From Pirellulales bacterium (GTDB lineage Bacteria; Planctomycetota; Planctomycetia; Pirellulales; JACPPG01): 64,000 nt of DNA. How positions within the stretch are numbered: position 1 is the first letter of the stretch; every line of letters starts with the position of its first letter. The notes beneath the pieces are model-generated. The model had not been told where the DNA came from and ran no database searches. It was given only the letters and a program-made list of their open reading frames with translations. The stretch spans positions 3,964-67,963 of the forward strand of contig DASZWQ010000098.1 of assembly GCA_035546535.1 (NCBI GenBank). Reading direction: 5' to 3'. Position numbers and translations under genes: made by a program. Below, piece by piece: positions 25,039 to 40,074 of the stretch.

Positions 25039-25080
25039 GCGCCTGTAGCTCAGGGGATAGAGCAACGGTTTCCTAAACCG
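25039..25080 (+). repeat. attL: truncated copy of the 5' 42 nt of tRNA-Arg(CCT)
   Basis: GCGCCTGTAGCTCAGGGGATAGAGCAACGGTTTCCTAAACCG is identical to 39986..40027. The sequence diverges immediately after, so there is no T-arm or 3' acceptor strand. Confidence 0.85.
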
Positions 25081-25172
25081 CCTGGGCCAGTGTTGTAACC
25101 CCTTATTTCTCGGCTTTTCCGCCATTTCTATCCGCTACAGCAACACGGGAAACGGTCCCCGTTGCTGCATTT

Positions 25173-25192
25173 CCCGGACAAATCCGGACAAG
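25173..25192 (+). repeat. Paired CCGGACA half-sites (candidate integrase arm-type site, left arm)
   Basis: CCCGGACAAATCCGGACAAG resembles TCCGGACAGGAATCCGGACAAG at 39942..39963. Confidence 0.45.
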
Positions 25193-25213
25193 AGCGGAAA
25201 GGGGTTTCACACC

Positions 25214-25366
25214 ATGTACGTCGATGCCATCCCGTGCGGTCGCCGCTTTCGATTCGCTGTCTACATTCGCGGCCGTGAAAAGCCCTACGTGAGTCTGCGG
25301 ACGTTTGCCACGCCGCGCATCGCCAAGCGTGCCGGGTGGCGTGAATTCGGCATGGTCAAGGTCTAA
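25214..25366 (+). CDS. Small hypothetical protein (50 aa)
   Basis: ATG..TAA read by hand (MYVDAIPCGRRFRFAVYIRGREKPYVSL..). It is below the ORF-track cutoff and is the first ORF inside attL. Confidence 0.3.
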   Translation: MYVDAIPCGRRFRFAVYIRGREKPYVSLRTFATPRIAKRAGWREFGMVKV

Positions 25367-25383
25367 CCAACAGGGGAAATATC

Positions 25384-25476
25384 ATGCGAGTCACGGCCTT
25401 GTGTGCGTTCGCGCTTACCGTTGTGTTGTTTTTGGCTGGGCCTGATCTTACCTTCCTGATTCTAGGTGGCCGATGA
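25384..25476 (+). CDS. Small hydrophobic peptide (30 aa)
   Basis: MRVTALCAFALTVVLFLAGPDLTFLILGGR. Its stop overlaps the next ATG (ATGA). Confidence 0.25.
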   Translation: MRVTALCAFALTVVLFLAGPDLTFLILGGR

Positions 25477-25601
25477 TAACGACACAAAACCTGATCGAAG
25501 CGTTGGAATGGCTGTTAGAGCGCGCGAAGGGAAGCCACGTACAAATTGACATTTGGACCGTCCGCAAGGTGCTGGACGCTCTCAGGGGGACACAACAGTG
25601 A
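25473..25601 (+). CDS. Small hypothetical protein (42 aa)
   Basis: MITTQNLIEALEWLLERAKGSHVQIDIWTVRKVLDALRGTQQ. ATGA overlap upstream and GTGA overlap downstream. Confidence 0.3.
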   Translation: MITTQNLIEALEWLLERAKGSHVQIDIWTVRKVLDALRGTQQ

Positions 25602-25969
25602 CAACTAAGCCCGATACAACCAGCCAGGTCTTTGGGGTGTTGTTCGTAGCCGTCTTTCTGGCCGGATACCTGTGGGTCAACACCGGCAGTCCCGCCCCGT
25701 CGCAACGTTTCGTCGGACGTGGCGAGCGTGTCACGGTGCGTAACGCGCTTGTGGCGGTGGACTACGAAACGTGGAAGGAAATGGACAAGCTTCAGTCGAT
25801 CGGCGACACGGCTGGTCTGAACCAACTGACCGATGCGAAGCTGATTACGCGCGCCGGTGGAACGGTGCTAGTGATTGATCCGGGCTTCTGCTGCGCCCGC
25901 GTACGCTTCCTGGACGGTCCGATGCAGGGCGCGGCGGGATATCTGAGCGTGGCGTATCTGAGTCGGTAG
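25598..25969 (+). CDS. Hypothetical single-pass membrane protein (123 aa)
   Basis: GTG start coupled to the upstream stop. TM segment VFGVLFVAVFLAGYLWV followed by a soluble domain. Confidence 0.5.
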   Translation: MTTKPDTTSQVFGVLFVAVFLAGYLWVNTGSPAPSQRFVGRGERVTVRNALVAVDYETWKEMDKLQSIGDTAGLNQLTDAKLITRAGGTVLVIDPGFCCARVRFLDGPMQGAAGYLSVAYLSR

Positions 25970-25973
25970 CCGT

Positions 25974-26324
25974 TCAGATAACTTGGCCGGACTTCAACAG
26001 AGTGAGTTGGTCCGACGACAATCGTGTCTTGTCGCGGTCCGACAACACAATGACGCGACCACTCGCAAGCAATTCCAATTGCCCAGCCGACAAGCGATCC
26101 TTGTCGTGCTGCGTCAATTCGATGATTTGCCCGGAAGCCAGTAATTCTAGCTGTTCGGGAAGCAACCGATCTTTGTCGTGCTGCGTTAGTTCGATAATCC
26201 GTCCGGAAGCCAGTAGCTCCAACTGGCTGCGCGACAGACGATCCTTGTCCGCCTCAGTTAGCTCAATCTGGCGACCGGATGCCATTAGAACTAGCTGCTC
26301 CGGGCTGAGTTGCTTTCGATCCAT
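25974..26324 (-). CDS. Tandem-repeat protein (116 aa, 4.6 x 24-aa units)
   Basis: Units LSxxQLELLASGxIIELTQHDKDR. Start moved to ATG 26324 (MDRKQ..). Confidence 0.65.
   Translation of the reverse strand: MDRKQLSPEQLVLMASGRQIELTEADKDRLSRSQLELLASGRIIELTQHDKDRLLPEQLELLASGQIIELTQHDKDRLSAGQLELLASGRVIVLSDRDKTRLSSDQLTLLKSGQVI
25977..26309 (-). repeat. 72-nt tandem repeat (coding) within 25974..26324
   Basis: Successive 72-nt units are visible at the DNA level, e.g. CGATCCTTGTCGTGCTGCGTCAATTCGATGATTTGCCCGGAAGCCAG.. and CGATCTTTGTCGTGCTGCGTTAGTTCGATAATCCGTCCGGAAGCCAG.. Confidence 0.8.
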
Positions 26325-26398
26325 GATAATTCCGCCGTAATGGTTTCGGGATGGCCAAAAGATGCGCTTACGGAATCCTAGCGCTGGTCGTCGCCGAG

Positions 26399-26968
26399 TC
26401 AACCGCGGTCAGTGCGTACGGTGCCCTGTAGTGCGCCGATCAATTTTTCGTCAAGTTGATCGGCGCGTATTTCTGCGCGCATCGAACCCGCAAGCTGCCG
26501 TAGATGCGGGTCTATCATCGCGCGATACCCTTGCACCGATATTTCCCGCCGCTCAAGCGCCACCGGGTTAAGGGTCGAAAGGGTAGCCATCACGGCCATC
26601 AAATCATCACACGCCTTAGCTGAAAGCAGCAGCGTCGATCTTGGAATTAGATCATGCAAATCCTTGGCTGCGGCCATGAACTCAGACCAAAGCTTATCAG
26701 TCTCTGTGGCCGCTTTGCCTGCCGACGCGAAAAGCAACCAGTTGCTTCCGCAGTTTTGAGCTTTGGAAACTTTGACCACAAGTTCCGTGCAAAGGTCAGC
26801 ACGACGAATCCATAATTCCTTCGCGTACGGTTCCCACCCGGCGAGACGGCGCAGACGGTCCGACTTACCAATTGCATAGAAACTGCCAAAGATCGACAGC
26901 AATGACGACAGCACAGCAATGGATACGGATCGGATAACGTCCACCCACCACGTATCAGGATTCGCCAT
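26399..26968 (-). CDS. Hypothetical N-terminally anchored membrane protein (189 aa), cargo operon gene 3
   Basis: TM segment VIRSVSIAVLSSLLSIFGSFYAI followed by a helical domain. Overlaps the upstream gene by 14 nt. AT-richer than the host. Confidence 0.6.
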   Translation of the reverse strand: MANPDTWWVDVIRSVSIAVLSSLLSIFGSFYAIGKSDRLRRLAGWEPYAKELWIRRADLCTELVVKVSKAQNCGSNWLLFASAGKAATETDKLWSEFMAAAKDLHDLIPRSTLLLSAKACDDLMAVMATLSTLNPVALERREISVQGYRAMIDPHLRQLAGSMRAEIRADQLDEKLIGALQGTVRTDRG

Positions 26969-27362
26969 CTTTGTTGCTCGGCTGGTCTTTGAGGCTGACG
27001 AGATACGGTTTTACCTCACCAAATGCAACCACAATCGTCACGATTTTATCGGGTACGACTATCTCGCGAATCATCTTGCCAGTTGCCATTTTCGCTAGTG
27101 CTTTGTCGGCTTGCTCAACCGACATAGGGTGCAGAACGGTAGGAACGTAGCCGGGTTGCATCCCGCCGTCTCGGTCGTCTTTGGCCCTTTGATGTTCCTT
27201 AGGCGAGATAAACGTCTCGGCAAACGCCTTGCCATTTTTGTCCGTCCAGTCCACCACAAAGACAACTGGCAACTCAAGACCTAAGTCGATCCAGCGTTGA
27301 GCCATTGCCCGGACATCGTTGATTGCCTCTTTAAGAAGCAATGCCTGCGGCTCGCGATGCAT
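26955..27362 (-). CDS. Hypothetical soluble protein (135 aa), cargo operon gene 2
   Basis: ATG lies 4 nt after the upstream stop. No family recognised. Confidence 0.6.
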   Translation of the reverse strand: MHREPQALLLKEAINDVRAMAQRWIDLGLELPVVFVVDWTDKNGKAFAETFISPKEHQRAKDDRDGGMQPGYVPTVLHPMSVEQADKALAKMATGKMIREIVVPDKIVTIVVAFGEVKPYLVSLKDQPSNKDGES

Positions 27363-27366
27363 GTAC

Positions 27367-28041
27367 CTATTCCAGATGCCCTAGGATGTTTGTGACGAAT
27401 TCGATTCGATTTTGGCAGGCAGCAATCATCGGCGCAATTTGTTGCTTTGAATAGTGATCTTGCTTTGTGAGAGAGTTCGCCATTGGCGGATTCACGCCAT
27501 AGCCTGGAAACGCCTTGAAATGCTCCTTTACGTAGTTGTAGACCTCACGATCCAAGCTATTGAATGCCAAAACGGCTGCCGTGTCGGAGGCTTCAAGCAA
27601 TGCCTTCGACTGTTCGAGACGCTGTAGAAACCCTCGCATTTTCGCTCGCTTCATGCTTAGCTCTGGATTGGCGTTCTTTGCCTTTTCCAGTTCCGAAGTG
27701 AGCGTTGCGACTTGGCTACCAAGCGACTGGATCGTTTCTTCCTTTGAGGCGAGTTGACCCGACACCTGATCGTACAAGGTCAGATGGGTCTTGAAGACCG
27801 CGTAGAACGCGAAAACGACAGCCAAAACGACCCAGCCGACCACTACTGTAAGGAAGGCCCAAACTGTTTTCTCCCAAGCCTTGCCTGGGTCGCTGGTGAA
27901 ATAACCAAATGCCCAAGCAGCTATTGAGGTGCTGACTAACCCGGCGGCGATTACGCTTACGCTCTTTACGCCGAATAGCTGCGCCGCGTCGTGAGCGGAT
28001 TGCTTTATTAGTTTTCTGAGATAGTCGCGGCGGTTGTTCAT
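27367..28041 (-). CDS. Hypothetical two-TM + coiled-coil protein (224 aa), cargo operon gene 1
   Basis: Start moved to ATG 28041 (MNNRRDYLRKL..). TM helices VSVIAAGLVSTSIAAWAFGYF and VWAFLTVVVGWVVLAVVFAFYAVF, then a heptad-like segment ..QSLGSQVATLTSELEKAKN.. Confidence 0.6.
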   Translation of the reverse strand: MNNRRDYLRKLIKQSAHDAAQLFGVKSVSVIAAGLVSTSIAAWAFGYFTSDPGKAWEKTVWAFLTVVVGWVVLAVVFAFYAVFKTHLTLYDQVSGQLASKEETIQSLGSQVATLTSELEKAKNANPELSMKRAKMRGFLQRLEQSKALLEASDTAAVLAFNSLDREVYNYVKEHFKAFPGYGVNPPMANSLTKQDHYSKQQIAPMIAACQNRIEFVTNILGHLE

Positions 28042-28051
28042 TTCTTCTTTG

Positions 28052-28100
28052 CCAACAAAACACTGCCGGAGCCGCGCAGGGCAGTTCGCACGGCTCCGGC
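28052..28100 (-). terminator. Terminator/attenuator-like hairpin in the leader of the cargo operon
   Basis: 10-bp GC stem GCCGGAGCCG (28065..28074) / CGGCTCCGGC (28091..28100). On the minus strand it is followed by AGTGTTTTGTTGG, just upstream of ATG 28041. Confidence 0.4.
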
Positions 28101-28159
28101 GAATGTGGGGAAGGGTGTGGGTTACACCCAACGGCAATAGTGTAACGGCAACTGATGGC

Positions 28160-28200
28160 CAATAAAATAACCGCCTGAGGGTCGCACCCCTCAGACGGTT
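28160..28200 (-). terminator. Rho-independent terminator separating the structural module from the cargo operon
   Basis: Stem AACCG-C-CTGAGGG (28169..28181) / CCCTCAG-A-CGGTT (28188..28200). On the minus strand it is followed by ATTTTATT. Confidence 0.6.
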
Positions 28201-28365
28201 TGACTCACGGCCCCTAGCCGCAAGCTACGCAGCGAGTCGTGGGTAGGATTCGGCCACCTCTGAGACATACACCTCGGAGCATGCTTTCGCGACGATCAGC
28301 CAACAGGCGTCACGGCGGGTTAGGGGAGGGGCGGGATACGCCCCGCGTCCGCTAATGTAACTGCG

Positions 28366-28605
28366 TTAGCTGGCATCGGCCAGCGGAAGCATCGGCAATA
28401 TGTCGGGATTCTCGGCGGTCGAATCCTCGCGCGTGACGCGAACAATCAGGCACACGTCTTCCGCGTCGATAAACTGAAGTGACTCGCCGTTGGACAAGGC
28501 AACTTGTACATCGGCATCGTCGGGGATTTCTACGTCGTGCCGGTCAAGCAATGCTACCAAGTCGTTTCCGTCGAAAATCAGGCTGTCGTTTCGGACTCGC
28601 ATCAT
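28366..28605 (-). CDS. Small, strongly acidic hypothetical protein (79 aa)
   Basis: GGAGG lies 7 nt upstream of ATG 28605 (MMRVRNDSLIFDGNDL..). By hand count, 13 Asp + 5 Glu versus 5 Arg and 0 Lys. Confidence 0.55.
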   Translation of the reverse strand: MMRVRNDSLIFDGNDLVALLDRHDVEIPDDADVQVALSNGESLQFIDAEDVCLIVRVTREDSTAENPDILPMLPLADAS

Positions 28606-28750
28606 GGGTGCAACCTCCAAAGTTGGGCAAAAATGTGGGCCACGCGGCCCCTCTGCTCAACGATGCGCTGTCCGTGGACAATGTGAAGTGCAGCCGGTTC
28701 TGCTAGTTTTGCTCGCGGCAACGAACGTGCCGGGAATGATGGCAAACGTA

Positions 28751-28784
28751 CGTCAAAGCTGGTGATAAAGCGTCAAAGCTGGTG
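28751..28784. promoter_or_regulatory. Two direct copies of CGTCAAAGCTGGTG spaced 20 nt apart (operator-like)
   Basis: 28751..28764 and 28771..28784 are identical, in the intergenic region ~150 nt upstream of the acidic-protein gene. On the minus strand each copy contains TTGACG. Confidence 0.4.
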
Positions 28785-28916
28785 TAAAACGCTCCATCGA
28801 TACGTATAGGCGGAAAATCGCATTCTTTAGCCGGCCGCGCGGCGCGCAACAAAATCGGCACAACCGATTAGCCGGTCGTGCCGAAAAGATTTTTATGCCG
28901 ATTCCGCGAGCCGTAC

Positions 28917-29261
28917 CTAAAGCAACGCTTGCGCGGCCATACTCGCGAATCGTCGCGCGGCGTCACGGTCCTGCGCTGCCATCTGCCGTCGCTGCTGCCA
29001 GTACGGGACGCCGCGCGGCCGGTGACAATCCACGATGACGAGTCCGGCCGGGATGCGTTTTTCGCGGCATGCGGCATTTAGGACGCCAAGCACGGATTCT
29101 GGCTTGGCGTCTTGGCCCGTCACGATGTAATCAATTGATTGCTCGCCCCGATGGCCGCTGGCTTGCGAAAACCGCCAGCGCTTGCCCAGCAGTTCCGTTG
29201 CCCAAGCCTCTAAGTCTTCGACGCGGACTCGCGTCACGCTCTCACGCACGAAATCAATCAC
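28917..29261 (-). CDS. Hypothetical protein (114 aa)
   Basis: GTG 29261 is preceded by GGGGAG. The upstream part of track ORF 28917..29363 overlaps the terminator and the preceding gene. Confidence 0.55.
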   Translation of the reverse strand: MIDFVRESVTRVRVEDLEAWATELLGKRWRFSQASGHRGEQSIDYIVTGQDAKPESVLGVLNAACREKRIPAGLVIVDCHRPRGVPYWQQRRQMAAQDRDAARRFASMAAQALL

Positions 29262-29275
29262 TGTTAAGACTCCCC

Positions 29276-29316
29276 AAAAAAGAACACCGTAGCCCGATTC
29301 GGTCAACGGGCTACGG
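29276..29316 (-). terminator. Rho-independent terminator overlapping the stop codon of 29303..29833
   Basis: 10-bp stem CCGTAGCCCG (29287..29296) / CGGGCTACGG (29307..29316). On the minus strand it is followed by TGTTCTTTTTT. Confidence 0.65.
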
Positions 29317-29833
29317 CATTCCAATCGATGTACATCTCGTAGCGGGCGTCCACTACGGAGCACTTGATCTTTTCAACTTTGTCGGCCTGGCCGAAGTTGA
29401 AGACGCGGACCGCGCTATTGTCCTTGCCCGACTTGGGCAAGAGACAACCAAGGAAGATTTGCGAATCGGGATCGTCGGGGTTGTAGTCGGTCAGTTCCTG
29501 GCCGTAGTTCCACACCGGGATCGGCGAATCCATCGCCTCGTTGAACAGGCCCTCGTAGGTGAGGATGTCGAGTCCGTTCTTGTTCGGTGTGTCGTAGCGG
29601 CTTAAGATCAACACGTTGGCGTCGATCAGGATTTGGTAGTAGTTCGCGCTACATTCCTTGGTAAACGGTCCCGTGATGCGAATCTCGACCCGATCGGTCG
29701 CTTGCTGGAAAGCTGTGGTGCGATCGTCGAGATGATCGACCAGGACGGCTAATCCGGCTTGCGTGGCGACGGTCTTCAGATGATGGGCGACCGATGAGAA
29801 GGTCCATCGTGCCCAGTTGGGATTGGCGGGCAT
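29303..29833 (-). CDS. Hypothetical structural-module protein (176 aa)
   Basis: TAATG 1-nt overlap with the upstream gene, and followed by its own terminator. No family recognised. Confidence 0.65.
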   Translation of the reverse strand: MPANPNWARWTFSSVAHHLKTVATQAGLAVLVDHLDDRTTAFQQATDRVEIRITGPFTKECSANYYQILIDANVLILSRYDTPNKNGLDILTYEGLFNEAMDSPIPVWNYGQELTDYNPDDPDSQIFLGCLLPKSGKDNSAVRVFNFGQADKVEKIKCSVVDARYEMYIDWNAVAR

Positions 29834-30102
29834 TAGTAGGCCGAGACTCGATAGAGTCCCTTTTCGAGCACCCCATCTTGGACCATCAGGCGCAAGAGTA
29901 GCTCAATGTTACCGGTAATCTGCCCCTCTCGAATTCGATCGACTTGCTGCGATAGCGCGGGATGAATCCAGTCCCCGGCCCAAAGCTCGATTGTGGGGCC
30001 GGCCAACGGTCGCACAGAGTACAGCACGTCGTAGCGCGTATACCCGAAATGCTGTGAGATACGCTGACTGAGTTCCCGGGACGTGATATCAAAAACGTTC
30101 AT
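29833..30102 (-). CDS. Hypothetical protein (89 aa)
   Basis: Starts 7 nt after the tape-measure stop, within a tightly packed operon. Confidence 0.6.
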   Translation of the reverse strand: MNVFDITSRELSQRISQHFGYTRYDVLYSVRPLAGPTIELWAGDWIHPALSQQVDRIREGQITGNIELLLRLMVQDGVLEKGLYRVSAY

Positions 30103-30109
30103 TATGTTC

Positions 30110-33100
30110 CTAGATCAGCGACGTGCCGCGCCGCGCTTCGCGGCGCAAGAGTTGTTGAATCTCGCGGGCCGTGGCCTGCGGATTTGCGGATTCAGTGATA
30201 TTGATTCCGCCGTTGAAGGTGACACTGCTCACCGGCCCACCTTCCGCCCGGTAAACGGGGCGATCAGCATTCATGGCGACCAGTTGCGAATAGAACTTTT
30301 GCGTACTCGCGGCGTTCATCACGAATTCGCCCGGTGAGAGCATGGCCGGAATGGTGTCCGTGCCACGCGCTTGACCGCCGGCAGAGAAGTAGCGGCCAAT
30401 GACGCCACCATAGGCTTCGTTTTCCGTCTCGGCCGCAACCTTGGCCGCCACACTGACGGTATACTGCTGCGAGTCCAAATAGCCCTGAATCTGGCTGCTC
30501 ATCCCGGACAGCGCTTGGCCTGACGCTTCCAGGTCGTTGATCCGCGTTCCTGTAACGGCTTGTTGCAAGCGCTGCTGAAGCTTGTCGAAGCTGAGCACCG
30601 TCGAAATATCAAAGTGACTACTAGGCGAAAATAAAACGCTGTTGAGGTGTGCCAAGTCTTCCTGGGCCGCAGCGCGATTCTTGGCGATTTGCGCTTCAGG
30701 CAGGCGGTTTCCCTGGCTATCAAATTCTCTCAAGTTATCCAGAAAATGCTTGCTCGTCTTGGCGATATCATCGACTCTCGCTTGTTCGGCCGCGGCAGCC
30801 GCGTTTGCCTGCAATGCGATTTGTGCTTTGAGGGCCGCTTGTGCGCGCGTAGCGTCCGTCTGACGACGCAAGACGCTTTCAATCTCGCGCTCTCCCTGTA
30901 GTTGCGCTGTGCGGTTGCCGGATGACTGGGCAGCCGTAGCCGCTTGCTGCGCGAACGCTTGGGCGCGCTGGAATTCCCGGCTAGCTAGCTCAATCTGCTG
31001 CGGCGTTTGAGCACGCGACAGCAGCCGCGATGCCTCCGAGGATAGACTGTCGGCGCGGTTGCGGTCACGCTGCGACTGTTGCAACTGGCTGAATCGCTTG
31101 TTGGCGTAATTGAAGCGCTGATCGCTTAACTGTTGGGCAAGATCGTTGGCGTGCTGTTGATCCTTGATTGAGTCTTGCGCCGAAGTCTGGGAGAGCCGTT
31201 TCAGGTCCTGGGCGTATCTCTGGCGCGCTTGAAGGATGCGCTCCAAGGTATCGTGATCGTCGCGGACTAAATCCGCGTTGGCTTGCTTTGCCTTTTCGGC
31301 AGCGCTCACGGATGTTTGCAGTGCTTCGGTACCAATGCCGGCCGGGTCGAATTTGACCGTAGCGGCTGTCTCGCGAATATCCTTAAGCTTCTTCAAGCCT
31401 TCGTCGTACTGGTTTAATTCCGGCTGAAAGGTCGCGCGCGTGACGAAATTTGATGCTTGAGTGTCATTGACTAACTTGGCATGCTCCGCGACCAAATCGT
31501 TAAAGTCTTTCTCAGTGATTTTCGCTTGATGCGATACGGCCGCATAGTGAGCAACAAACGCATCAAAGTCGGATCGCAATTGGTCAGCGAACGGCGCGCC
31601 GGATCGCGCGCCGCGGTTCGCATCGCTCTGGGTAACAATTTGCTCGGCTTCTGCACGGAGATTCGCCAGCCGTTGCGTCTGCACTTCAATCTCATTCGCG
31701 CCGCTCTCGTTCAATTTGTCGAGATTCTGTTTGTTCAAGGCTTCCAAGGCCTTTGATTGCGCGGATTGGTCGAGAAGATTGGCATTGATGAATTGGCCAA
31801 TCGAAACGCCAAGTCCTTTGGCGACCGGAACGGCCGCTAGTCCCGCCAGTGCAGTAGAAAAGCCGACACCGGCAAGCCGCGCTGCGCCTAACTGCGTCGT
31901 TATGAGTACAAGACTGGCACCAAGCCCTAAGAGAGCCGGGCCGGCAGCGTCGATGACAGACGTGGCATTCTCCACACCGCCAGCCCAACGGCTGAATTCG
32001 GCTGCGGCTTTGACGGCCGCACCGCCCACACCGTCCGTGAGTGCATTGCTCAGCTTGTTAAGATCGCTCTCGACGCGCTCTGCGTCCGTGGAAATGCGCC
32101 GTAAGTAGACGTTGGCGTGATCGGACGGGGTGAAATTGGAAATCTTTTGCAGATGCTCTTGGTACGTGTCAAAGCCTTGTTGTGCCTCGCCGAGTACGCC
32201 TTTGATGGCGCGTACATTCGTGAACAGTCTCGCGATGCTTTCGGCCGAGCCATCCGTTGTACCGATCAAGGCACGCAAACCGCCGACAAAGCCGAGTGCT
32301 TTGACGAGCGCTTGGGCGTTTTCAAAGCCCAACAAGTGCATTGCGTCGGCGGTCGCCTTTGTCGGCTTCAATAGGGCAGTAATTGCCGCGTTCTGTTGAG
32401 TCGCGGCCTCTTCCGGGCTGACACCACGTTGCGTCAACGTGCTGAAGCCAGCTAACACCTCTTCAGGCTTGATTCCGAGCAGATTCGCGCCGGGAGCAAC
32501 CTTAGGCAAATTCGCTGCCAGTTCAGAGCCGACGATCTTGCCTAGCTCGACGGTCTTGAAGAACTCCGCAGCGCGCTTCTCCGCATTGGGCGCGGATTCA
32601 CCAAACGCATTTAGCGCAGTGCTGAGCAAGTTGACCGTATCGACACCTCCGGCAACGGTCGTCTTCGCGAGCTTGAACGATGCTTCCAGGATTTGCAGTT
32701 GGTCGCTGGCGTTCGTAAAACCGTTTGACAGTACGTCGTATTTCGCCTTGGCCACGTCGAGTAGCGGTATGTTGTAGGCGTCACTGAGAGAGCGAACATC
32801 TTTGGCTAATGACTCGATGGACCGGTCGCCTGCGATCGTCTGGATATTCGAGACAGCTTTTTGAAAATCGAGCGATGAATGGAGAGTCTCGCTAATCTCA
32901 TTGCGGACCGTGGACATACCACGCACGATGGCTTGTGTGAATACCACACGGCTAAGCAGCCCGAGGCTTACCGTCAACTTATCGACATTCACGGTTGACG
33001 CGGCTGCACCCTGTCCCAAGTCCGTGCGCAGTGCATTGCCAACTTGCTTGGCTGCGGCGCTTGCATTCGAGCCAGCACTGTTGAAGAGGTTTATTGATCC

Positions 33101-33211
33101 TGCAACGGACGTGAATCGGGTTTGGAGATTCGTCAGCGACGAATCTAGCTGCTTACACGCTTCAAGCGCCTGCGAAACGTCAAAGCCAAGCTGTTGGTTT
33201 AGGTCGGCCAT
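30110..33211 (-). CDS. Phage tail tape-measure-like protein
   Basis: 1033 aa. The N-terminal third resembles the TP901-type TMP core (..AKYDVLSNGF..LEASFKLAKTTVAGGVDTVNLLSTALNAFG..GVSPEEAATQQNAAITALLKP..). There is a Gly/Ala-rich hydrophobic segment and a long Ala/Gln coiled coil, with C-terminal ..TDTIPAMLSPGEFVMNA.. Confidence 0.8.
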   Translation of the reverse strand: MADLNQQLGFDVSQALEACKQLDSSLTNLQTRFTSVAGSINLFNSAGSNASAAAKQVGNALRTDLGQGAAASTVNVDKLTVSLGLLSRVVFTQAIVRGMSTVRNEISETLHSSLDFQKAVSNIQTIAGDRSIESLAKDVRSLSDAYNIPLLDVAKAKYDVLSNGFTNASDQLQILEASFKLAKTTVAGGVDTVNLLSTALNAFGESAPNAEKRAAEFFKTVELGKIVGSELAANLPKVAPGANLLGIKPEEVLAGFSTLTQRGVSPEEAATQQNAAITALLKPTKATADAMHLLGFENAQALVKALGFVGGLRALIGTTDGSAESIARLFTNVRAIKGVLGEAQQGFDTYQEHLQKISNFTPSDHANVYLRRISTDAERVESDLNKLSNALTDGVGGAAVKAAAEFSRWAGGVENATSVIDAAGPALLGLGASLVLITTQLGAARLAGVGFSTALAGLAAVPVAKGLGVSIGQFINANLLDQSAQSKALEALNKQNLDKLNESGANEIEVQTQRLANLRAEAEQIVTQSDANRGARSGAPFADQLRSDFDAFVAHYAAVSHQAKITEKDFNDLVAEHAKLVNDTQASNFVTRATFQPELNQYDEGLKKLKDIRETAATVKFDPAGIGTEALQTSVSAAEKAKQANADLVRDDHDTLERILQARQRYAQDLKRLSQTSAQDSIKDQQHANDLAQQLSDQRFNYANKRFSQLQQSQRDRNRADSLSSEASRLLSRAQTPQQIELASREFQRAQAFAQQAATAAQSSGNRTAQLQGEREIESVLRRQTDATRAQAALKAQIALQANAAAAAEQARVDDIAKTSKHFLDNLREFDSQGNRLPEAQIAKNRAAAQEDLAHLNSVLFSPSSHFDISTVLSFDKLQQRLQQAVTGTRINDLEASGQALSGMSSQIQGYLDSQQYTVSVAAKVAAETENEAYGGVIGRYFSAGGQARGTDTIPAMLSPGEFVMNAASTQKFYSQLVAMNADRPVYRAEGGPVSSVTFNGGINITESANPQATAREIQQLLRREARRGTSLI

Positions 33212-33271
33212 TGGTCGGACTCTGTAAGTGCCGCCGGCACCGGGTCGCCCCGATGCCAGCGGTTCGGGAAG

Positions 33272-33934
33272 TTATTGGATGGCGGCGCGCTGCTGCTCGA
33301 TGGCCTGGGCCTTAGCGTCGATCGCTGCCGATTCGGCGAAGTATTCGGCTAGGCTAGCGTCCAGCGACTCGCGAGCCTGCTGGACCAGTACGTCCATTGC
33401 GGCGTAGTAGCGGTCCACGTCGTAGGTCGTGGTCAGGGCGGCTTGGTTGTTTCTGGCCTGCTGTTTGAATTCGTCGGGAAGCGCTTCGATCCAGGCGGCC
33501 GATTGCTTCAGGGCGGCTTGGTAGGCAGGCGATGCCTCCAGGGCTGCGATTCGCTCGCGTTCTACTTTCTCGGCCGCATTTTGTTCATCGCGAGATGCGG
33601 CTAAATCTTTGAAGCGTTTTCGTGCGCCCTTGCTCAAGGTGACGGACTCGCTGTCCAGGATTTGGCGGAAAGGATTTTCCGCCGCAAGCTTGGCTTGTTC
33701 CACTCGTCTGGCTTCGGCCGCATCGCGGTCTAACGCGCGCTTCGCGTCGATGCCGGCGATCCGGGCCTCAACTTGTTCGCGCGTGACCTGCGTCTGTGCT
33801 TCACGGCGTTGCTTGCCGCTCAATGCCGCTTCGTTTTGTTTTCGCAGGATATATGCCTGGGTGTCTTCGCCAGGCATGCGGCCTACCTTTTCCTGTAGGT
33901 TCGCTTCAATTTGTTCTCTGGTCAGTTGGGGCAT
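33272..33934 (-). CDS. Hypothetical coiled-coil protein (220 aa)
   Basis: Charged Ala/Glu/Gln/Arg-rich helical sequence directly upstream of the TMP gene. Confidence 0.6.
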   Translation of the reverse strand: MPQLTREQIEANLQEKVGRMPGEDTQAYILRKQNEAALSGKQRREAQTQVTREQVEARIAGIDAKRALDRDAAEARRVEQAKLAAENPFRQILDSESVTLSKGARKRFKDLAASRDEQNAAEKVERERIAALEASPAYQAALKQSAAWIEALPDEFKQQARNNQAALTTTYDVDRYYAAMDVLVQQARESLDASLAEYFAESAAIDAKAQAIEQQRAAIQ

Positions 33935-34051
33935 TGTTATCTTTCTCCGACTGGGGCTGTGTTTTGGGCGCGGCGGCGGCGGCCAATCTCTGGCCCTCCG
34001 CGTGCTTCTTTGAGAGTCTCGCTTGCTCTCGTAAAAATTGTCGGCGTGTGG

Positions 34052-34531
34052 TCATCGTCCACCCCGCAACCAATTGATCGCACGCTGGACGAACCGGAAT
34101 AGTCGGCGAACGACACCGGCACGGATTACGATAAGTGTCGTGGTGTGCTGCTCCCATCGGCCCAGCCACCGATCCGGGCGCTTCAGCAGCGGTGTACAAT
34201 ATCGAGTCTCATTGTGCGCGGGGTTAAATCGCTTAGACCTTGCGTCCGGCTGTACCGAATCGCCGCAAACAAGGAAATGCGTCGGCAACGGTTCGCGATT
34301 CTGGTGCGGATCGAACGGGCAAAGTTCTAGGCCCGGCACATAGGACTCCAGGAACCAAGCGCGATGAACTACGCCATCTACGACACCGACAGCGAGCAAC
34401 GTGCAGCCAGGTATCGAGTGTCGCGCGTGCTCAAAGAAGGATGGGCCGTACTCATAACCGCTGAAGTGCTCTGTCTCTCGAACGTAATTGAATTCGTTCG
34501 GATGAAGTCTCGCAAAAATGGTTTCCATCAA
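34052..34531 (-). CDS. Hypothetical protein (159 aa)
   Basis: ATGA overlap with the upstream gene. Confidence 0.5.
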   Translation of the reverse strand: MMETIFARLHPNEFNYVRETEHFSGYEYGPSFFEHARHSIPGCTLLAVGVVDGVVHRAWFLESYVPGLELCPFDPHQNREPLPTHFLVCGDSVQPDARSKRFNPAHNETRYCTPLLKRPDRWLGRWEQHTTTLIVIRAGVVRRLFRFVQRAINWLRGGR

Positions 34532-34842
34532 ACACCTATCCAGGCAACTTGCTGCCCATCATCTTCCGCCGCTACCCACACGAATGACGGATCGTCGATC
34601 GGCAAACTAATGGAAAAACCCGGCCGCAATGGCATGCCGTCGCTGATCGACACCGTAGAAAGTCCAACGTAGACATTCGTCGTGTTGTTGGGATTCGCGA
34701 CGATATCGACGCCCCGGAACAACTTGTTTGTGTTGTCGAGTGTTCGGCGGCCCGTCAATGGCACCGGCACTAGTCCGACAGTCGTACGGCCATAGACCAT
34801 GCCTCGCGTGTCAGAAACTTCGCGATCTAATTCGATACCCAC
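34528..34842 (-). CDS. Hypothetical protein (104 aa), beta-rich
   Basis: 1-nt overlap with the upstream gene. Sequence ..NTTNVYVGLSTVSISDGMPLRPGFSISLPIDDPSFVWVAAEDDG.. Confidence 0.6.
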   Translation of the reverse strand: MGIELDREVSDTRGMVYGRTTVGLVPVPLTGRRTLDNTNKLFRGVDIVANPNNTTNVYVGLSTVSISDGMPLRPGFSISLPIDDPSFVWVAAEDDGQQVAWIGV

Positions 34843-35084
34843 TAGAAACCTCGCTCGTCATACTGATCTGCGCGGTCCCACAAGTAAGCCACACTCGCCT
34901 TAGCCGCCGGAACAACACGACCGCCATAGAAGAATGCTGGCGAGAGATTCCGTAGGACCGTGCGATACGGATTCGATTCGCCGTATGCATCATCTGTCGG
35001 CAGCTTGAGCGCTTGCGCACACCGGCAGTACAGTTGAAGTTCGGGCAAGTCCGTGTCACGCTCGACGATTTGGTAAACGTTCAT
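34842..35084 (-). CDS. Hypothetical protein (80 aa)
   Basis: ATGA overlap with the upstream gene. Confidence 0.55.
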   Translation of the reverse strand: MNVYQIVERDTDLPELQLYCRCAQALKLPTDDAYGESNPYRTVLRNLSPAFFYGGRVVPAAKASVAYLWDRADQYDERGF

Positions 35085-35338
35085 CGCTGGCCCGCCGCGT
35101 ATCGAGCGCTGCGCGATTCGAGCAGTTGCAGGATTTCTCGCCGGAGCGGCGAGTCCACGATGACAGATTTGATTTTTTGCGCGGCATCCTCGTACGGATT
35201 CGATGCAACGAGCGCAGCGCTCGAATCGTAATGCTGTAGTAGCTGTAGGATGACGTGCAGGACCCCAGGACCGTCGAGCGCGGGAACGTGCGTCGGATCG
35301 AAAAGGTTGCTCGTGACGAGCGAATAGCTTGTGGACAT
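35081..35338 (-). CDS. Hypothetical protein (85 aa)
   Basis: First gene after the 400-nt structured gap, coupled to the downstream genes. Confidence 0.55.
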   Translation of the reverse strand: MSTSYSLVTSNLFDPTHVPALDGPGVLHVILQLLQHYDSSAALVASNPYEDAAQKIKSVIVDSPLRREILQLLESRSARYAAGQR

Positions 35339-35739
35339 TTGGTGCCTTTCGTGGGAAATGCGCGGCTAGGGTGAGAGCCTAGCCGCGCCCGATTTCGCGC
35401 GACCCCATGACCCAGACAAATCGCGCGAAGTAGAAGCGGCCGTGAGGGCGACAAGGAAAAACACCTCTCACGGCGCGAGCAGCGTAGCACCTTGATCGCG
35501 ACTACGCGCTCAGTTTTTGGGAAGCGCAAAGAAGAGCCAATATGAGATACACCTAGGACTTATCCGACGCACACTGGGGATGATTTCGCGACGATCGTGG
35601 CTCCGATCGTCGCAGGGGGACGGTAGCGAGCCGACCACGCCCAGGTGTACGGATTGTGGACCCCATAGATGGTCCGTGCGAATGGGGCATTCGCCCCTCT
35701 ATTATCTATGTCACGGGGAGGGCCACAAATTGCACAGAA

Positions 35740-36183
35740 TCAGGAAAAATATCGCTTTTTTATCGCATTCAGCCGCCGCGTCACGGTTGCCGGATCGATT
35801 CCTAGTTCAGCCGCGGCCTCCTTGCGGCTGTATCCCGCGGCCCGCAGTCGCACGATTTCGGCGTCTAGTGGGTCACACGATGCGAGTATGTCGTCTTCCA
35901 GTTCCGCCGCGGCGTCAGGATCGTAGATGGCTCGCTCGACTGCCCCTTGATCCGATTGCGGTTCGCGGGACTCGGCGCGGATATGCCTCTGCATAGCAGT
36001 ACAGATGATGCCGTACAGGGTTTTCTCATCGATGGGGCCAGCTTCGATGTAGGCAAGCTGGCCGACGCCCCTCAGTTCGTTGTACCAGCGGTCCGGTTGT
36101 AAACGCTTACGCTTTATTGTCGCTTTCGCGGCGCGCTCGACTACAGCCGGGAAATGTGTCTCCCATTCGTCCTTAAATTTCAT
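35740..36183 (-). CDS. Sigma-70 region-4-like HTH protein (possible element-encoded sigma/late regulator or small terminase-like DNA binder)
   Basis: C-terminal ..LDAEIVRLRAAGYSRKEAAAELGIDPATVTRRLNAIKKRYF looks like an ECF sigma region 4 / LuxR-type HTH. Confidence 0.5.
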   Translation of the reverse strand: MKFKDEWETHFPAVVERAAKATIKRKRLQPDRWYNELRGVGQLAYIEAGPIDEKTLYGIICTAMQRHIRAESREPQSDQGAVERAIYDPDAAAELEDDILASCDPLDAEIVRLRAAGYSRKEAAAELGIDPATVTRRLNAIKKRYFS

Positions 36184-36304
36184 GTTTTGCCGCGGCGGTC
36201 CATGTTAAAACGCCTACGAGCCCCATAGAAAAAAGCATGGTGCAATCACACCGGGGGTGTTGCCGGACGCTGCTATACGCAATCCTAGGGCGTTTGGGAC
36301 GGGA

Positions 36305-36679
36305 TTAGGCAGTGACCGGCCTTAGAAGACCGTCCATGACTGTCCACGCGGGCCGCGTCGGGGTGACCCGGTGCCAGGACAGATTACCGATGTACCGGCG
36401 GTTGCCGGTGTGCCGGCCGTACGGGAAGCGTGCTGGAATAGCTTTCGCGACCCGCGTGCGGGTCCACTCGCGGCGCTCGCTTTTGACTAGCGACCGCAGA
36501 AAGCGCGCATAGAAGTCCGTGAAAAGGATTTTTGCGCCGGCTACTTCGTAGCATTCGGCAGCGATGAACTGCTCAACGATGGGACTAGTCTTGGCATCTG
36601 CCAGTTTTTGGATCGCCCGTGCGATTTCGTCGCCGGTCAGCGTGACTGGGCCCGCCACAGTAACAACATGTAAATTCAC
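36305..36679 (-). CDS. Hypothetical protein (124 aa)
   Basis: GTG 36679 is preceded by AGGAG. This is the first gene downstream of promoter-like motif copy A. Confidence 0.55.
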   Translation of the reverse strand: MNLHVVTVAGPVTLTGDEIARAIQKLADAKTSPIVEQFIAAECYEVAGAKILFTDFYARFLRSLVKSERREWTRTRVAKAIPARFPYGRHTGNRRYIGNLSWHRVTPTRPAWTVMDGLLRPVTA

Positions 36680-36710
36680 CCTGATGCTCCTGTCTCAAGT
36701 TGTAATTCGC

Positions 36711-36723
36711 CACACACACACAC
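36711..36723. repeat. (CA)6 dinucleotide repeat
   Basis: CACACACACACAC lies between motif copy A and the GTG start at 36679. Confidence 0.9.
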
Positions 36724-36724
36724 T

Positions 36725-36756
36725 TGTTAGGTGCAGCCCAGACCGATTTGGCACAC
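36725..36756 (-). promoter_or_regulatory. Bipartite promoter-like motif, copy A
   Basis: The minus strand reads GTGTGCCAAATCGGTCTGGGCTGCACCTAACA. It is upstream of 36305..36679 and forms an inverted repeat with copy B. Confidence 0.4.
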
Positions 36757-36785
36757 TCGATTCTGGAATTTTTTTTTGCGTGCAG

Positions 36786-36817
36786 GTGTGCCAGATTGCT
36801 CCGGGCTGCACCTAACA
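36786..36817 (+). promoter_or_regulatory. Bipartite promoter-like motif, copy B
   Basis: GTGTGCCAGATTGCTCCGGGCTGCACCTAACA. A T9 run (36769..36777) lies 8 nt upstream. It faces the repeat-dense non-coding region. Confidence 0.4.
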
Positions 36818-37148
36818 GGCATGGACTTAGACAGACTGAGACAGGACTACGTTGTAGTAGGGTCGGCGGTAAAATGTGCGTACGGGCTGCTCCGTGTGCA
36901 TGGCGACACACTGTACGCAATCGCTGAGGGGCACCCCCGCGTGCGGAATCAGCTTCGCGCGCTGCCGCGCGCGGTCCAGGGGCCGGGGGAATGCGTCATA
37001 CTCCCCGCCGAGCAGTTTCAGGCCGCGGCCGGGATCATGCGTCCTGTCTGCCAGGACCGACGCAGGAAGGGGCGACACGCCCCGCGACCGCCCCCGTCAC
37101 GGGATGCCAGCGGGCGGTTTCGCTCGCCGCGGCGATGAGTTAGTTTTC

Positions 37149-37168
37149 GAGTTACTTTCGGGGTAACT
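37149..37168. repeat. Palindromic site AGTTAC-N7-GTAACT
   Basis: GAGTTACTTTCGGGGTAACT at the left edge of the AT-rich core. Confidence 0.7.
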
Positions 37169-37343
37169 TCTTTTTCCCTTACAGACATCAATATATTTTT
37201 CTCTATAGGGTAGGGTAGAAGTTAATAAAAAAAAGCAACTATCGGTGGAAATCGAGCTATTGCGTTCGCGTAAATCCTTGATATATAAGGACTTAGCATC
37301 GTTTTTTCCGCCGAGTTACTTTTAGAGCCGCCGGAGCCCGGTC

Positions 37344-37364
37344 GAGTTACTCGAAAAGTAACTC
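37344..37364. repeat. Palindromic site GAGTTAC-N7-GTAACTC
   Basis: GAGTTACTCGAAAAGTAACTC at the right edge of the AT-rich core. An extra half-site GAGTTACT lies at 37313..37320. Confidence 0.75.
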
Positions 37365-37445
37365 TACCCCTCTGACGGGTTATGCGATAGACCCCTGATT
37401 TATGGGTCATCTTGAGGCCCAGGCACGTCCGCCGCGGCGAAACGC

Positions 37446-37462
37446 CTAGTTTCTGGGCACGC
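37446..37462 (+). repeat. 17-nt direct repeat, copy 1
   Basis: CTAGTTTCTGGGCACGC compared with CTAGTTTCTAGGCACGC at 37545..37561 (1 mismatch, 99 nt apart). Confidence 0.75.
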
Positions 37463-37467
37463 ACCTC

Positions 37468-37508
37468 GGCCCTCCGCCGGCCCTCCGCCGACCCTCCGCC
37501 GGCCCTGG
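37468..37508 (+). repeat. 11-nt tandem repeat (about 3.6 copies)
   Basis: GGCCCTCCGCC GGCCCTCCGCC GACCCTCCGCC GGCCCTGG. Confidence 0.85.
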
Positions 37509-37544
37509 ATTTCCCGGATGAAACACGTCCCCGGGGGCCGATCG

Positions 37545-37561
37545 CTAGTTTCTAGGCACGC
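37545..37561 (+). repeat. 17-nt direct repeat, copy 2
   Basis: CTAGTTTCTAGGCACGC. Confidence 0.75.
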
Positions 37562-37778
37562 CCCAGACGAAAGAGCAACGGCCGCGCAACCCGCAAAATC
37601 GCCGCCACCCCACCGAAGATTTGACCCTGCCCCGTCCCCAGGTCCGGCAACCCGCCAGACTCCGGCTACGCACACCGTTGCTCTATGCTCGTTTGGTGCC
37701 TGGATTCCTGGGGTCTGCGGGTCACTTTGTCCGGGACCTGTCCGCGTCGGCCGTGCATAGTGTACATGCGATCAGTAC

Positions 37779-37834
37779 CGGTTGTAACGATTATGACGGT
37801 TGTAGCGGTTGTGCCGGTTGTAGCGAGTTTGTGG
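37779..37834 (+). repeat. 9-nt iteron-like repeats CGGTTGTRN
   Basis: CGGTTGTAA (37779), then tandem CGGTTGTAG CGGTTGTGC CGGTTGTAG (37797..37823), then a degenerate CGAGTTTGTGG. Confidence 0.8.
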
Positions 37835-37980
37835 GGCCGATAAGCACAACCGCGCATACACGCTCCCATAACCGCGCGTTGGGGGCACTCCTACCACCCC
37901 CAGGCACCAGCGATCCGGGCATCTATATCGCGGTGGCCGGATCACGGCGCAGTCTCGGCTTTTTTTTTTTTTGAAATTTG

Positions 37981-38012
37981 GTGTGCCAGTTTGCGAGTTG
38001 CTGCACCTAACA
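37981..38012 (+). promoter_or_regulatory. Bipartite promoter-like motif, copy C
   Basis: GTGTGCCAGTTTGCGAGTTGCTGCACCTAACA. A T13 run (37960..37972) lies 8 nt upstream. An 8-bp hairpin 38021..38041 follows. Upstream of 38072..38488. Confidence 0.4.
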
Positions 38013-38071
38013 AGCATGGGCCGCAGGCACGTCGCCTGCGGACAGATGGAACCAAAGATGAGGTGCAATCA

Positions 38072-38635: not shown

Positions 38636-38881
38636 ATGACAGCAGCAACAAGAATCGCAATCGCCCTGGAGCGCATCGCCGATCATCTCGATAGGGCGAA
38701 GCCGCCGGCACCTTTGACCGCTGAACAAGTCGCCGAACGGCTAGGCGTCAGCGTCGATAAGGTCTACCAGATGGCCCGCAAAAAAGAATTGCGGTCCACG
38801 AAACACGGACGCGCGGTCCGGTTCGCGGTTGCCGATATCGAGCGCTATCTAGCGGATCAACGGCCACGCCTCATTGCGTAG
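38636..38881 (+). CDS. xis: Excisionase-family HTH DNA-binding protein
   Basis: LTAEQVAERLGVSVDKVYQMARKKELRSTKHGRAVRFAVADIERYL matches the excisionase/MerR-like HTH pattern. Start moved to ATG 38636. Confidence 0.75.
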   Translation: MTAATRIAIALERIADHLDRAKPPAPLTAEQVAERLGVSVDKVYQMARKKELRSTKHGRAVRFAVADIERYLADQRPRLIA

Positions 38882-39908
38882 CCTTGTCGAGTTCGTCACG
38901 CAAGAATTGGTGCTGTCTCTCTAGATGGCCGTACACTCTGCGGACCATTGTCCCATCGACGTGGCCCATTAGTACGCCAGTGGTGTCGGCAGTAAGACCT
39001 CTCCGTAGCGCACGCTGCGCAAAACGATGGCGAACAGCGTAGGCGCACAGCCCGTTGATTTTCAGTTTGTTGCGTAGCTTTGAGAATCGCTGCGCAATTG
39101 CTCCGGCCGTGTACTCTTGACCCTTGCGACCACGGAACAGCGGTCCGGTCGGATGCTTCTTCGACAGTCGGTCGATAATCTCGGCAGCAGCGGAATTCAG
39201 CCGAATCACTCGGCGAACCTTTTGACCCTTGCTGTTCTCGCGCTCCAGGATCAAATCTTGATCCTCTCTGTGTGCAGCGCTGACACACCGCACCTCTTGC
39301 GGCCGGCAGCCGGTCGCATCCAAGAACTTCAGCACGTCCACAAAGTCAGCTTGCGCAGCGTCCAGGACGCGCTGCCAGTCAGCATCGGAAATATCAACTT
39401 CGCGTGGTATGACTTGCGGGCGCTCAATGCTGACCACGGGATTGATTGCCAGACCCTCGACCAGTTGTTGCTTGATTGCCCAGTTGAACACGCGGGCTGC
39501 GGCAGCAGCACAGCCATTCTTGTACGTTGATCCGCCCGGAAGGTTGTCTATCCAGCTTTGGATATGATGGCCCCGCGCTTCGTGGACCTTTACACTTCCG
39601 CAGTGAGCGACGAACGGGGTCAGTCGCTCCAAGTAGGTCTGGTGAGTTCTAGGCTTCTTCTTCTTCTTTGCCCAGTCGAGGAATTGTTGGCAGAGTTCCT
39701 GTATTGTGGTGGCGGAATTGACTGGCTGCGCACCTGCCATCCGTTTGTGATACTCACGCTCGGCGGCTTCCTTGCTACTTTTGCCATCGTTGTCGAGGTA
39801 TTTTCCGTTGGCATCCTTCTGGGTCTTGGCCAGCCGGACGGGTTTGCCACCCGGACCAACGTCCGCATACCATGCGTGGTGAGACTTCTTGTAGTACGGC
39901 AGTTTCAT
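38871..39908 (-). CDS. int: Tyrosine-type site-specific integrase
   Basis: 345 aa. N-terminal SAM-like region and C-terminal catalytic residues in ..YAVRHRFAQRAL.. and ..LMGHVDGTMVRRVYGHL. Adjacent to the tRNA. Confidence 0.9.
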   Translation of the reverse strand: MKLPYYKKSHHAWYADVGPGGKPVRLAKTQKDANGKYLDNDGKSSKEAAEREYHKRMAGAQPVNSATTIQELCQQFLDWAKKKKKPRTHQTYLERLTPFVAHCGSVKVHEARGHHIQSWIDNLPGGSTYKNGCAAAAARVFNWAIKQQLVEGLAINPVVSIERPQVIPREVDISDADWQRVLDAAQADFVDVLKFLDATGCRPQEVRCVSAAHREDQDLILERENSKGQKVRRVIRLNSAAAEIIDRLSKKHPTGPLFRGRKGQEYTAGAIAQRFSKLRNKLKINGLCAYAVRHRFAQRALRRGLTADTTGVLMGHVDGTMVRRVYGHLERQHQFLRDELDKATQ

Positions 39909-39941
39909 GCTTGCTTGCCCTCCTATCTGTACTATACTTCA

Positions 39942-39985: not shown

Positions 39986-40058
<73 letters not shown>

Positions 40059-40074
40059 CTCTTCGGTTGACGAC

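Follow-up and report, generated by a model that had tools for sequence, protein, structure and literature searches.

The locus described here raises the question of whether four packed genes at one end of a phage-derived island constitute an undescribed defence system or are accessory cargo of the island. It lies in a 64,000-nucleotide stretch of DNA from a Pirellulales bacterium (assembly GCA_035546535.1, contig DASZWQ010000098.1; hereafter the window, to which positions refer unless a locus is named), where the four genes, designated P1 to P4, occupy positions 25974 to 28041. An earlier note had described them as a terminator-insulated cargo operon of membrane and coiled-coil proteins and as the best candidate in the window for an undescribed defence or exclusion system. 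Our results suggest that the block is a real, island-specific accessory membrane module and not a conserved system, a reading to which we assign a probability of roughly one half. The best explanation of the block is lineage-restricted, moron-like cargo at the attachment site (att)-proximal end of a phage-derived island that resides in a tRNA-Arg(CCT) gene. It is an ordinary orphan accessory block on this island, and a conserved defence system is unsupported.

All four open reading frames (ORFs) were recovered on the minus strand where the earlier note had placed them, with P1 at 27367..28041 (224 aa), P2 at 26955..27362 (135 aa), P3 at 26399..26968 (189 aa) and P4 at 25974..26324 (116 aa). 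The spacing read from the sequence also agreed exactly, in that P2 begins 4 nt past the P1 stop, the P3 start overlaps the P2 stop by 14 nt, and P3 and P4 are separated by a gap of 74 nt. Independent gene calls on public Logan contigs returned an identical P1 (one contig), an identical P2 (three contigs) and the same P3 start, and the codon-position pattern of the block genes (GC1>GC2<GC3) is that of the integrase and tape-measure genes of the island. The four are real coding genes: for P1 and P2 this follows from ORF length, codon-position pattern, coupling geometry and the independent gene calls, and for P3 from twelve remote relatives with invariant residues and a confident structural model. 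The packing of P1, P2 and P3 fits one translationally coupled unit, so that the proposed operon holds for these three genes, whereas P4 may be a separate unit. A sigma-70-like promoter match (TTGACT-16-TAGGAT; 26375..26402, minus strand) is present in the gap between P3 and P4; it is a consensus match only, and one such match was found in the region compared with 2.5 expected. The start of P4 is uncertain, being either the ATG at 26324 or an alternative TTG at 26402 that overlaps the P3 stop, and the called gene products on record include neither the 116-aa nor the corresponding 142-aa version.

The composition of the block proved to be clearly unlike that of the host, as had been claimed. Recounting reproduced exactly the hand counts of 27/60 and 29/60 G+C for two lines of the block and 44/60 for a host line, and the G+C content (GC) of the whole block was 0.528, compared with 0.623–0.630 for the host. 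The rest of the island had a GC of 0.572, and block-sized windows within it showed a standard deviation of 0.007 and a minimum of 0.555, making the block an outlier even inside the island; a difference of this kind from the flanking phage genes (0.528 versus 0.572) is expected of a moron. GC at third codon positions (GC3) was 0.57–0.62 in the block, 0.60–0.76 in the other island genes and 0.73–0.79 in host genes. Only 0.9 kb separates the block from the distal att copy (25039..25080, plus strand), in which the first 42 nt of the tRNA-Arg(CCT) gene are repeated without mismatch. In 42 related phage loci, defined as those sharing the tape-measure gene of the island and/or e176, a gene for a 176-aa protein downstream of it, no relative of P1 to P4 was detected (tblastn, E<0.01), although the gene order of the island is rearranged and the exact insertion point is not comparable. 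A tblastn search of 50,697 phage genomes found nothing for any of the four proteins, nor did scans of IMG/VR with P1, P2, P4 and the P3 family profile. The outlier GC, the position near the distal att copy and the absence from the 42 related loci argue that the block is cargo, which upholds this part of the earlier proposal.

The one comparative test run on the block concerned the co-occurrence of its genes elsewhere, and it started from P3. An exhaustive phmmer search with this protein returned 12 remote relatives (E 2.3e-10 to 1e-3, identity 18–29%), whose alignment with P3 (A1) shows a juxtamembrane consensus YRRLARWEPY with invariant R40, R41, W45, E46 and W53. P3 has the N-terminal membrane helix, the RR..WE......W motif and the helical bundle of about 150 residues of this Planctomycetia family, and besides the anchor and the juxtamembrane motif it shares with it a C-terminal AR..LGID.LD.K...AI-like segment. 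It differs from its relatives in being the sole member seen on a phage-derived island and within a packed gene block. Pfam and NCBIfam hold no family for any P3-like member, and the family is unnamed.

The relatives were traced to eleven loci, in which they are solitary chromosomal genes, none of them phage-like. In three of these loci, one of which belongs to a Planctomycetia metagenome-assembled genome, the relative is found downstream of dnaK and a DUF559 gene (L003, 7902-8599; L005, 805-999; L013, 7947-8639). It is followed by clpB in L003 and L013, giving the order dnaK-DUF559-X-clpB, and L005 ends within the relative. The P3-like genes near dnaK and clpB have a lower GC3 than the chaperone genes, and the copy in L003 is split by a frameshift. 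Other neighbours of P3 relatives include a DEAD-box helicase, an HD-domain protein with a pseudouridine synthase (RluA), and unrelated small ORFs. No P1-, P2- or P4-like sequence was detected in the eleven loci (tblastn, E<0.1), and co-occurrence of the four genes thus fails as far as it is testable. The check was mostly negative, since the best candidate of the window for a new defence system did not pass this comparison, and the block looks like a patchwork rather than a conserved multi-gene system.

Cooperation of the four genes as one undescribed anti-phage or superinfection-exclusion system, expressed from the integrated island, in which P1 and P3 would be the membrane sensor or effector and P2 and P4 soluble partners, is accordingly unlikely. 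The tight gene coupling, the att-end position, the deviant composition, the terminator insulation and the absence of the block from related phages are all compatible with such a system. Membrane anchors with helical cytoplasmic domains are, moreover, common among exclusion and abortive-infection proteins, and a layout of this type is predicted here. However, searches of PADLOC-DB 2.0 with P1 to P4 and the neighbouring convergent ORF gave zero families at E<=1, so that no known defence family was recognised, and P1 to P4 all remained below threshold in Pfam, PHROG, PADLOC and NCBIfam, in agreement with the earlier note, which had recognised none of the families. In a word-seeded search of 5.8 billion clustered proteins, P1, P2 and P3 matched only themselves, and the singleton status of P1 and P2 gives no sign of the spread that is typical of defence systems. 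The family libraries revealed no catalytic, muralytic or nucleic-acid-binding domain in any of P1 to P4, and in particular no nuclease, NADase, protease or recognisable pore-former domain. As P3 relatives are solitary in housekeeping chromosomal contexts and no RNA-seq run containing the sequence was found, the defence or exclusion system put forward in the earlier note is not borne out.

P1 is an orphan with a basic N-terminus and a helical C-terminal part, for which two transmembrane segments and a coiled coil had been proposed. Hydropathy analysis gave a strong segment at residues 57–90 and a borderline one at residues 22–48 (Kyte-Doolittle value 1.71), and residues ~90–160 matched many coiled-coil families in Pfam weakly, indicating a coiled-coil-like stretch of about 60 residues. 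The second segment therefore stands, the first is borderline, and the coiled coil comes from weak family matches. Weak PHROG matches were obtained to four Rz-like spanin families (E 4.9e-3 to 0.33) and to phrog_25150 (E 9.7e-5), both covering the second hydrophobic segment and the coiled coil, together with a faint match to Phage_holin_3_6 (E 0.13). These matches reflect the layout of a membrane segment and a coiled coil.

The same matches are the main argument for a divergent lysis-related module of the ancestral phage, in which P1 would be holin- or i-spanin-like and P3 an antiholin or regulator, a reading that we consider rather improbable. P1 resembles Rz i-spanins in having a membrane segment followed by a coiled coil, and the block ends the structural gene strand, after the tail genes and adjoining att, as lysis cassettes do. 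In contrast to such cassettes, no endolysin or other muralytic domain (lysozyme, amidase, peptidase) was recognised in P1 to P4 or in the other island ORFs scanned, no ORF with a lipobox that could encode an o-spanin lipoprotein was found on the block strand, and the helical domains are predicted to be cytoplasmic. Furthermore, P1, with 224 aa, far exceeds class II holins, all matches are far under the family thresholds, and an island that lacks capsid and packaging genes would not produce particles that need releasing. Clear homology to a lysis cassette, which the earlier note had kept in view as an ordinary explanation, was thus not found, the Rz-like similarity reaching E ~5e-3.

P2 is a soluble, acidic orphan (pI 5.9) without a hydrophobic segment, as had been predicted, and gave no family match in Pfam, PHROG, PADLOC or NCBIfam. 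A sequence search of the PDB returned nothing for P1, P2 or the P3 profile, and an hhalign comparison of the P3 family with P1 indicated that the two are unrelated. A single-sequence AlphaFold2 (AF2) model of P2 (predicted local distance difference test, pLDDT, 47) was unusable, and the list of KCTD H1 domains that Foldseek returned for it (E>=0.014) is not meaningful.

The N-terminal membrane segment claimed for P3 was recovered by hydropathy at residues 8–34. The AF2 model of P3 built with alignment A1 (pLDDT 85.9; predicted TM-score, pTM, 0.67) consists of an anchor helix and a helical bundle, for which Foldseek found generic four-helix bundles in PDB and BFVD, none of them at E<=0.001. The best structural neighbours were the ligand-binding domains of Tsr, Tar, PcaY and MCP2201 and the NIT domain of NasR, with target-normalised TM-scores of 0.24–0.66 overall and 0.47–0.66 for the chemoreceptor and sensor-kinase domains. 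P3 resembles the latter in its anchor helix followed by an antiparallel helical bundle. It differs from chemoreceptors in having one membrane segment, a bundle predicted to be cytoplasmic instead of periplasmic, and no signalling output domain, and the fold class is generic. The bundle is placed in the cytoplasm on account of the basic juxtamembrane motif and the positive-inside rule.

P4 consists of 4.6 tandem units of 24 aa (consensus LSxxQLELLASGRIIELTQHDKDR), which confirms the repeats seen before, and hydropathy analysis gave no hydrophobic segment in it. Its four full units are 58–83% identical at the amino-acid level compared with 49–72% at the DNA level, inter-unit differences at codon positions 1, 2 and 3 number 51, 35 and 92, and of the 108 codons that differ 62 are synonymous. 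Since the protein is better conserved than the DNA and third-position differences dominate, P4 is evidently translated, and its repeats are old and maintained by purifying selection. P4 shares its period and a pattern QL.L..G.f..LT with 24-residue leucine-rich repeat (LRR) proteins (LRRTM, lamprey variable lymphocyte receptors, repebodies), and aligns without gaps over four units to LRR structures (PDB 5a5c, E 2.7e-6; 3m19, E 1.3e-4). It departs from them in that the LxxLxLxxN/C core is replaced in the alignment by the charged TQHDKDRLSxx, without the conserved Leu and Asn. No Pfam LRR model matched P4 at E<=1, and P4 also matches a designed helical repeat (9zem, E 0.011). An assignment as an LRR protein was rejected, as the core motif is missing and the likeness is limited to the period and half of the motif; the similarity may only reflect periodic leucines. 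P4 is some solenoid-type repeat. A match to DUF7210 (25.2 bits, E 1.1e-5) stayed below the gathering threshold of 27 bits, with no single stretch passing it, and no paper naming DUF7210 was found in the literature, which likewise yielded nothing relevant on planctomycete prophage morons. No match to P4 was found in phage genomes, IMG/VR, the loci of P3 relatives or the related viral loci, a coverage that is not exhaustive.

Downstream of the block, only 4 nt separate the P4 stop from the end of a convergent plus-strand ORF (25553-25969, 138 aa), whose product has one hydrophobic segment. This ORF has a GC of 0.61, nearer the host value. It had no family match in Pfam, PHROG or PADLOC, and its exact product is not on record.

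The conservation of the P4 repeats bears on the possibility that the four ORFs are passengers, decaying or without a function currently under selection, on what is left of a degraded prophage. This would agree with the island being reduced and rearranged relative to 28 relatives, with P1 and P2 having no relatives, and with the failure to find an RNA-seq run containing the sequence. We nevertheless regard it as very unlikely, because all four ORFs are intact and tightly packed, the P4 repeats are under purifying selection, and P3 keeps every invariant residue of its family along with a confident fold; the island is, in addition, free of variants in four samples, and its integrase gene and att repeats are intact.

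The region upstream of P1 had been described as containing a terminator, an inverted repeat and a GC-rich hairpin, and both hairpins (28200-28169 and 28100-28065) as well as the repeat were confirmed. The first, T1 (28169..28200, minus strand), is terminator-like, with 13 pairs followed by ATTTTATT, a T-run, and ends the upstream transcription unit. The second, T2 (28065..28100, minus strand), has 14 pairs, 11 of them G-C, is followed by AGTGTTTTGT, also a T-run, and leaves 24 nt to the P1 ATG; it represents a second terminator or, alternatively, a leader attenuator. Between T1 and T2 lies the perfect 7-bp inverted repeat (28121..28146), formed by GTTACAC (28121-28127) and GTGTAAC (28140-28146) with 12 nt between them. 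Chance alone would, on a rough reckoning, produce about 0.2 repeats of this kind in a leader as long as this one, and the repeat therefore carries no significance of its own; it may be an operator or promoter region. Folding of the 186-nt leader gave z = -5.75 against shuffled sequences. A third hairpin, of 13 pairs, was located at 28884-28855, and the three hairpins of at least 13 pairs in the island all fall within 28065-28884, while none in the other 10 kb exceeds 10 pairs. All three of the strongest island hairpins are thus grouped directly before the block, whose insulation is a local feature and not background. When 24.8–29.2 kb was compared with Rfam models, the sole match was to ctRNA; it fell on the T1 hairpin and, at 26.3 bits, stayed below the gathering score of 45.

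The moron layout suggested for the block was supported in its upstream terminators, outlier composition and att-end position, while the sigma-70 scan, which does not cover planctomycete promoters, recognised no promoter in the leader and no terminator was seen after P4. The lambda genes rexAB, sieB, bor and lom, and in cluster N mycobacteriophages the variable defence loci adjoining the integrase, are examples of cargo near att. The block resembles such prophage morons and lysogenic-conversion genes in its att-proximal position, its deviant composition, the terminators before it, its absence from relatives and its small membrane proteins. It is unlike them in having no homology to any of them, no identified promoter and no downstream terminator, and in being carried by a reduced island.

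Further upstream, an acidic 84-aa ORF (28366-28620) is bracketed by the strong hairpins at 28884-28855 and 28200-28169 and preceded by two tandem 19-nt direct repeats (28751-28769 and 28771-28789). This ORF may be a separate small regulated unit.

How the block might act can be outlined from these features. P1 would form a hairpin of two membrane segments with a cytoplasmic coiled coil and serve as a membrane-tethered scaffold at the inner membrane, and P3, with its anchor and cytoplasmic bundle, could be a second such scaffold; basic residues flanking the membrane segments suggest that in both the helical domain is exposed on the cytoplasmic side of this membrane. P2, encoded between the two with the geometry of translational coupling, is a likely soluble partner, and P4 is perhaps another, maybe transcribed from its own promoter-like site. 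Transcription of the block must come either by read-through from the tail-gene unit past both tandem hairpin terminators or from initiation within their 68-nt spacer, where the inverted repeat lies. In the latter case T2 would serve as a leader attenuator, and expression would then probably be conditional. Given that no enzymatic domain is present, any effect would probably be exerted through binding or membrane perturbation, the likeliest being a non-enzymatic change at the membrane of the carrier cell of the superinfection-exclusion or abortive-infection type, by analogy with further prophage genes located near att. Such an exclusion or abortive-infection role at the carrier cell membrane is a tentative suggestion and rather doubtful. 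It is quite unlikely that P1, P2 and P3, with or without P4, constitute a new membrane-anchored anti-phage or helper-interference module, seen so far only on this island, built around a recruited copy of a Planctomycetia membrane family and switched on via a hairpin leader.

Several observations weigh against reading the block as an island-specific, moron-like accessory membrane module. The predicted topology derives from hydropathy and the positive-inside rule only, and the first P1 segment is borderline; were this segment not membrane-spanning, the coiled coil would lie in the periplasm and a spanin-like function of P1 would be favoured. The sigma-70 scan, which does not cover planctomycete promoters, found no promoter-like match in the leader, and the hairpin scan found no terminator downstream of P4, so that the block is not a textbook moron of promoter, gene and terminator. 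None of the RNA-seq runs searched for the sequence contains it. P1, P2 and P4 may have remote relatives as well, the exhaustive HMMER search having covered P3 only. Finally, the term patchwork may understate the cooperation of P1, P2 and P3, as tight packing is what a functional unit shows.

Orphan accessory genes at prophage ends are very common, and a block of this kind will not surprise a specialist. Our analysis yielded two by-products. One is an unnamed Planctomycetia family of membrane-anchored four-helix-bundle proteins that recurs downstream of dnaK and DUF559 genes. The other is the 14.9-kb integrase-bearing island itself, which retains a tape-measure gene and a conserved gene of the tail or neck while lacking those for head and packaging, and which could be a remnant or a satellite. 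As the biology of Planctomycetes phages is poorly known, experimentally tractable cargo would be informative.

The island spans positions 25039-40059 of the window and is bounded by a perfect 42-nt direct repeat. The tRNA-Arg(CCT) gene is intact (39986..40059, plus strand), and its first 42 nt (39986-40027) form the proximal att copy, adjoining the gene of a tyrosine integrase (38871..39908, minus strand). The island further encodes the tape-measure protein (30110-33211, 1033 aa; PhageMin_Tail, E 2e-21), e176 (29303-29833), a small protein with a helix-turn-helix and an extracytoplasmic function (ECF)-sigma region-4-like domain (35740-36183), and about ten further small genes that matched no family. 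Among the island ORFs, none could be recognised as a capsid, portal, terminase, tail-tube or baseplate gene. The setting is therefore not the prophage that had been assumed, but a reduced integrase-bearing island without capsid, portal and terminase genes. No paralogues of island proteins were found within the window, and a scan of genome contigs with the tape-measure protein gave no match.

Relatives of e176 with 44–74% identity were found in all 42 related IMG/VR loci (L002 and L016-L056), although e176 matches nothing in Pfam or PHROG; it represents an unannotated but widespread family of tail or neck proteins. In all 28 loci that hold both genes, the e176 relative is located ~3–5 kb upstream of the tape-measure gene, an order that is reversed in the window. 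L002, the nearest relative, comprises a complete phage region that has distal tail genes and long upstream ORFs fitting head and packaging genes, and its tape-measure protein has 1268 aa compared with 1033 aa in the island. The reversed gene order and the completeness of L002 indicate that the island is a reduced, rearranged derivative, either a remnant or, possibly, a satellite.

Across four soil metagenomes the sequence of the island was invariant, whereas that of either flank differed from sample to sample. Contig depth over the island came to ~60–75% of the flank values in the two samples with the best coverage (about 8.8 versus 11–12 in X1, 5–6 versus 9–11 in X2). The lack of variants and the lower depth suggest that the insertion is recent or polymorphic in the population. 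No contig of the four metagenomes contains a junction skipping the island. That the island is a phage satellite whose block serves interplay with a helper, for instance by interfering with it or by redirecting its assembly at the membrane, is extremely improbable: its 14.9-kb size, integrase, perfect att repeats, lack of capsid, portal and terminase genes, retention in non-canonical order of a shorter tape-measure gene and the conserved tail or neck gene, and variant-free sequence at a depth below the flanks would suit a satellite, but no hallmark genes were recognised except that a relative of one small ORF weakly matches the C-terminal part of a primase, no second copy of the island architecture was found, and nothing ties P1 to P4 to a helper function.

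Contigs from two samples diverge from the reference at the same att/tRNA position (25073 and 40020, in the anticodon loop). The sequence past this point is identical in both samples and unrelated to the reference (CAAGTCTTAGAAGTAGTGAACAGCC...). In co-existing strains this tRNA site may be occupied by something else; alternatively, the divergence may stem from another tRNA gene.

Indirect sequence evidence also points to a planctomycete as the probable soil-dwelling host, namely a match to PF07638, the planctomycete-derived Pfam 'ECF sigma factor' model, an ORF with a PEP-CTERM-like tail, and the P3 relative from the Planctomycetia metagenome-assembled genome. A divergent control region lies between the structural strand of the island and a plus-strand ORF (37991-38488). 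It contains a tandem array at 37467-37506 with ~3.6 copies of the 11-nt unit CGGCCCTCCGC, as well as two copies of a 56-nt element (36769-36824 and 37964-38019) that are 77% identical and each start with a T9 run. These two copies may be paired regulatory sites.

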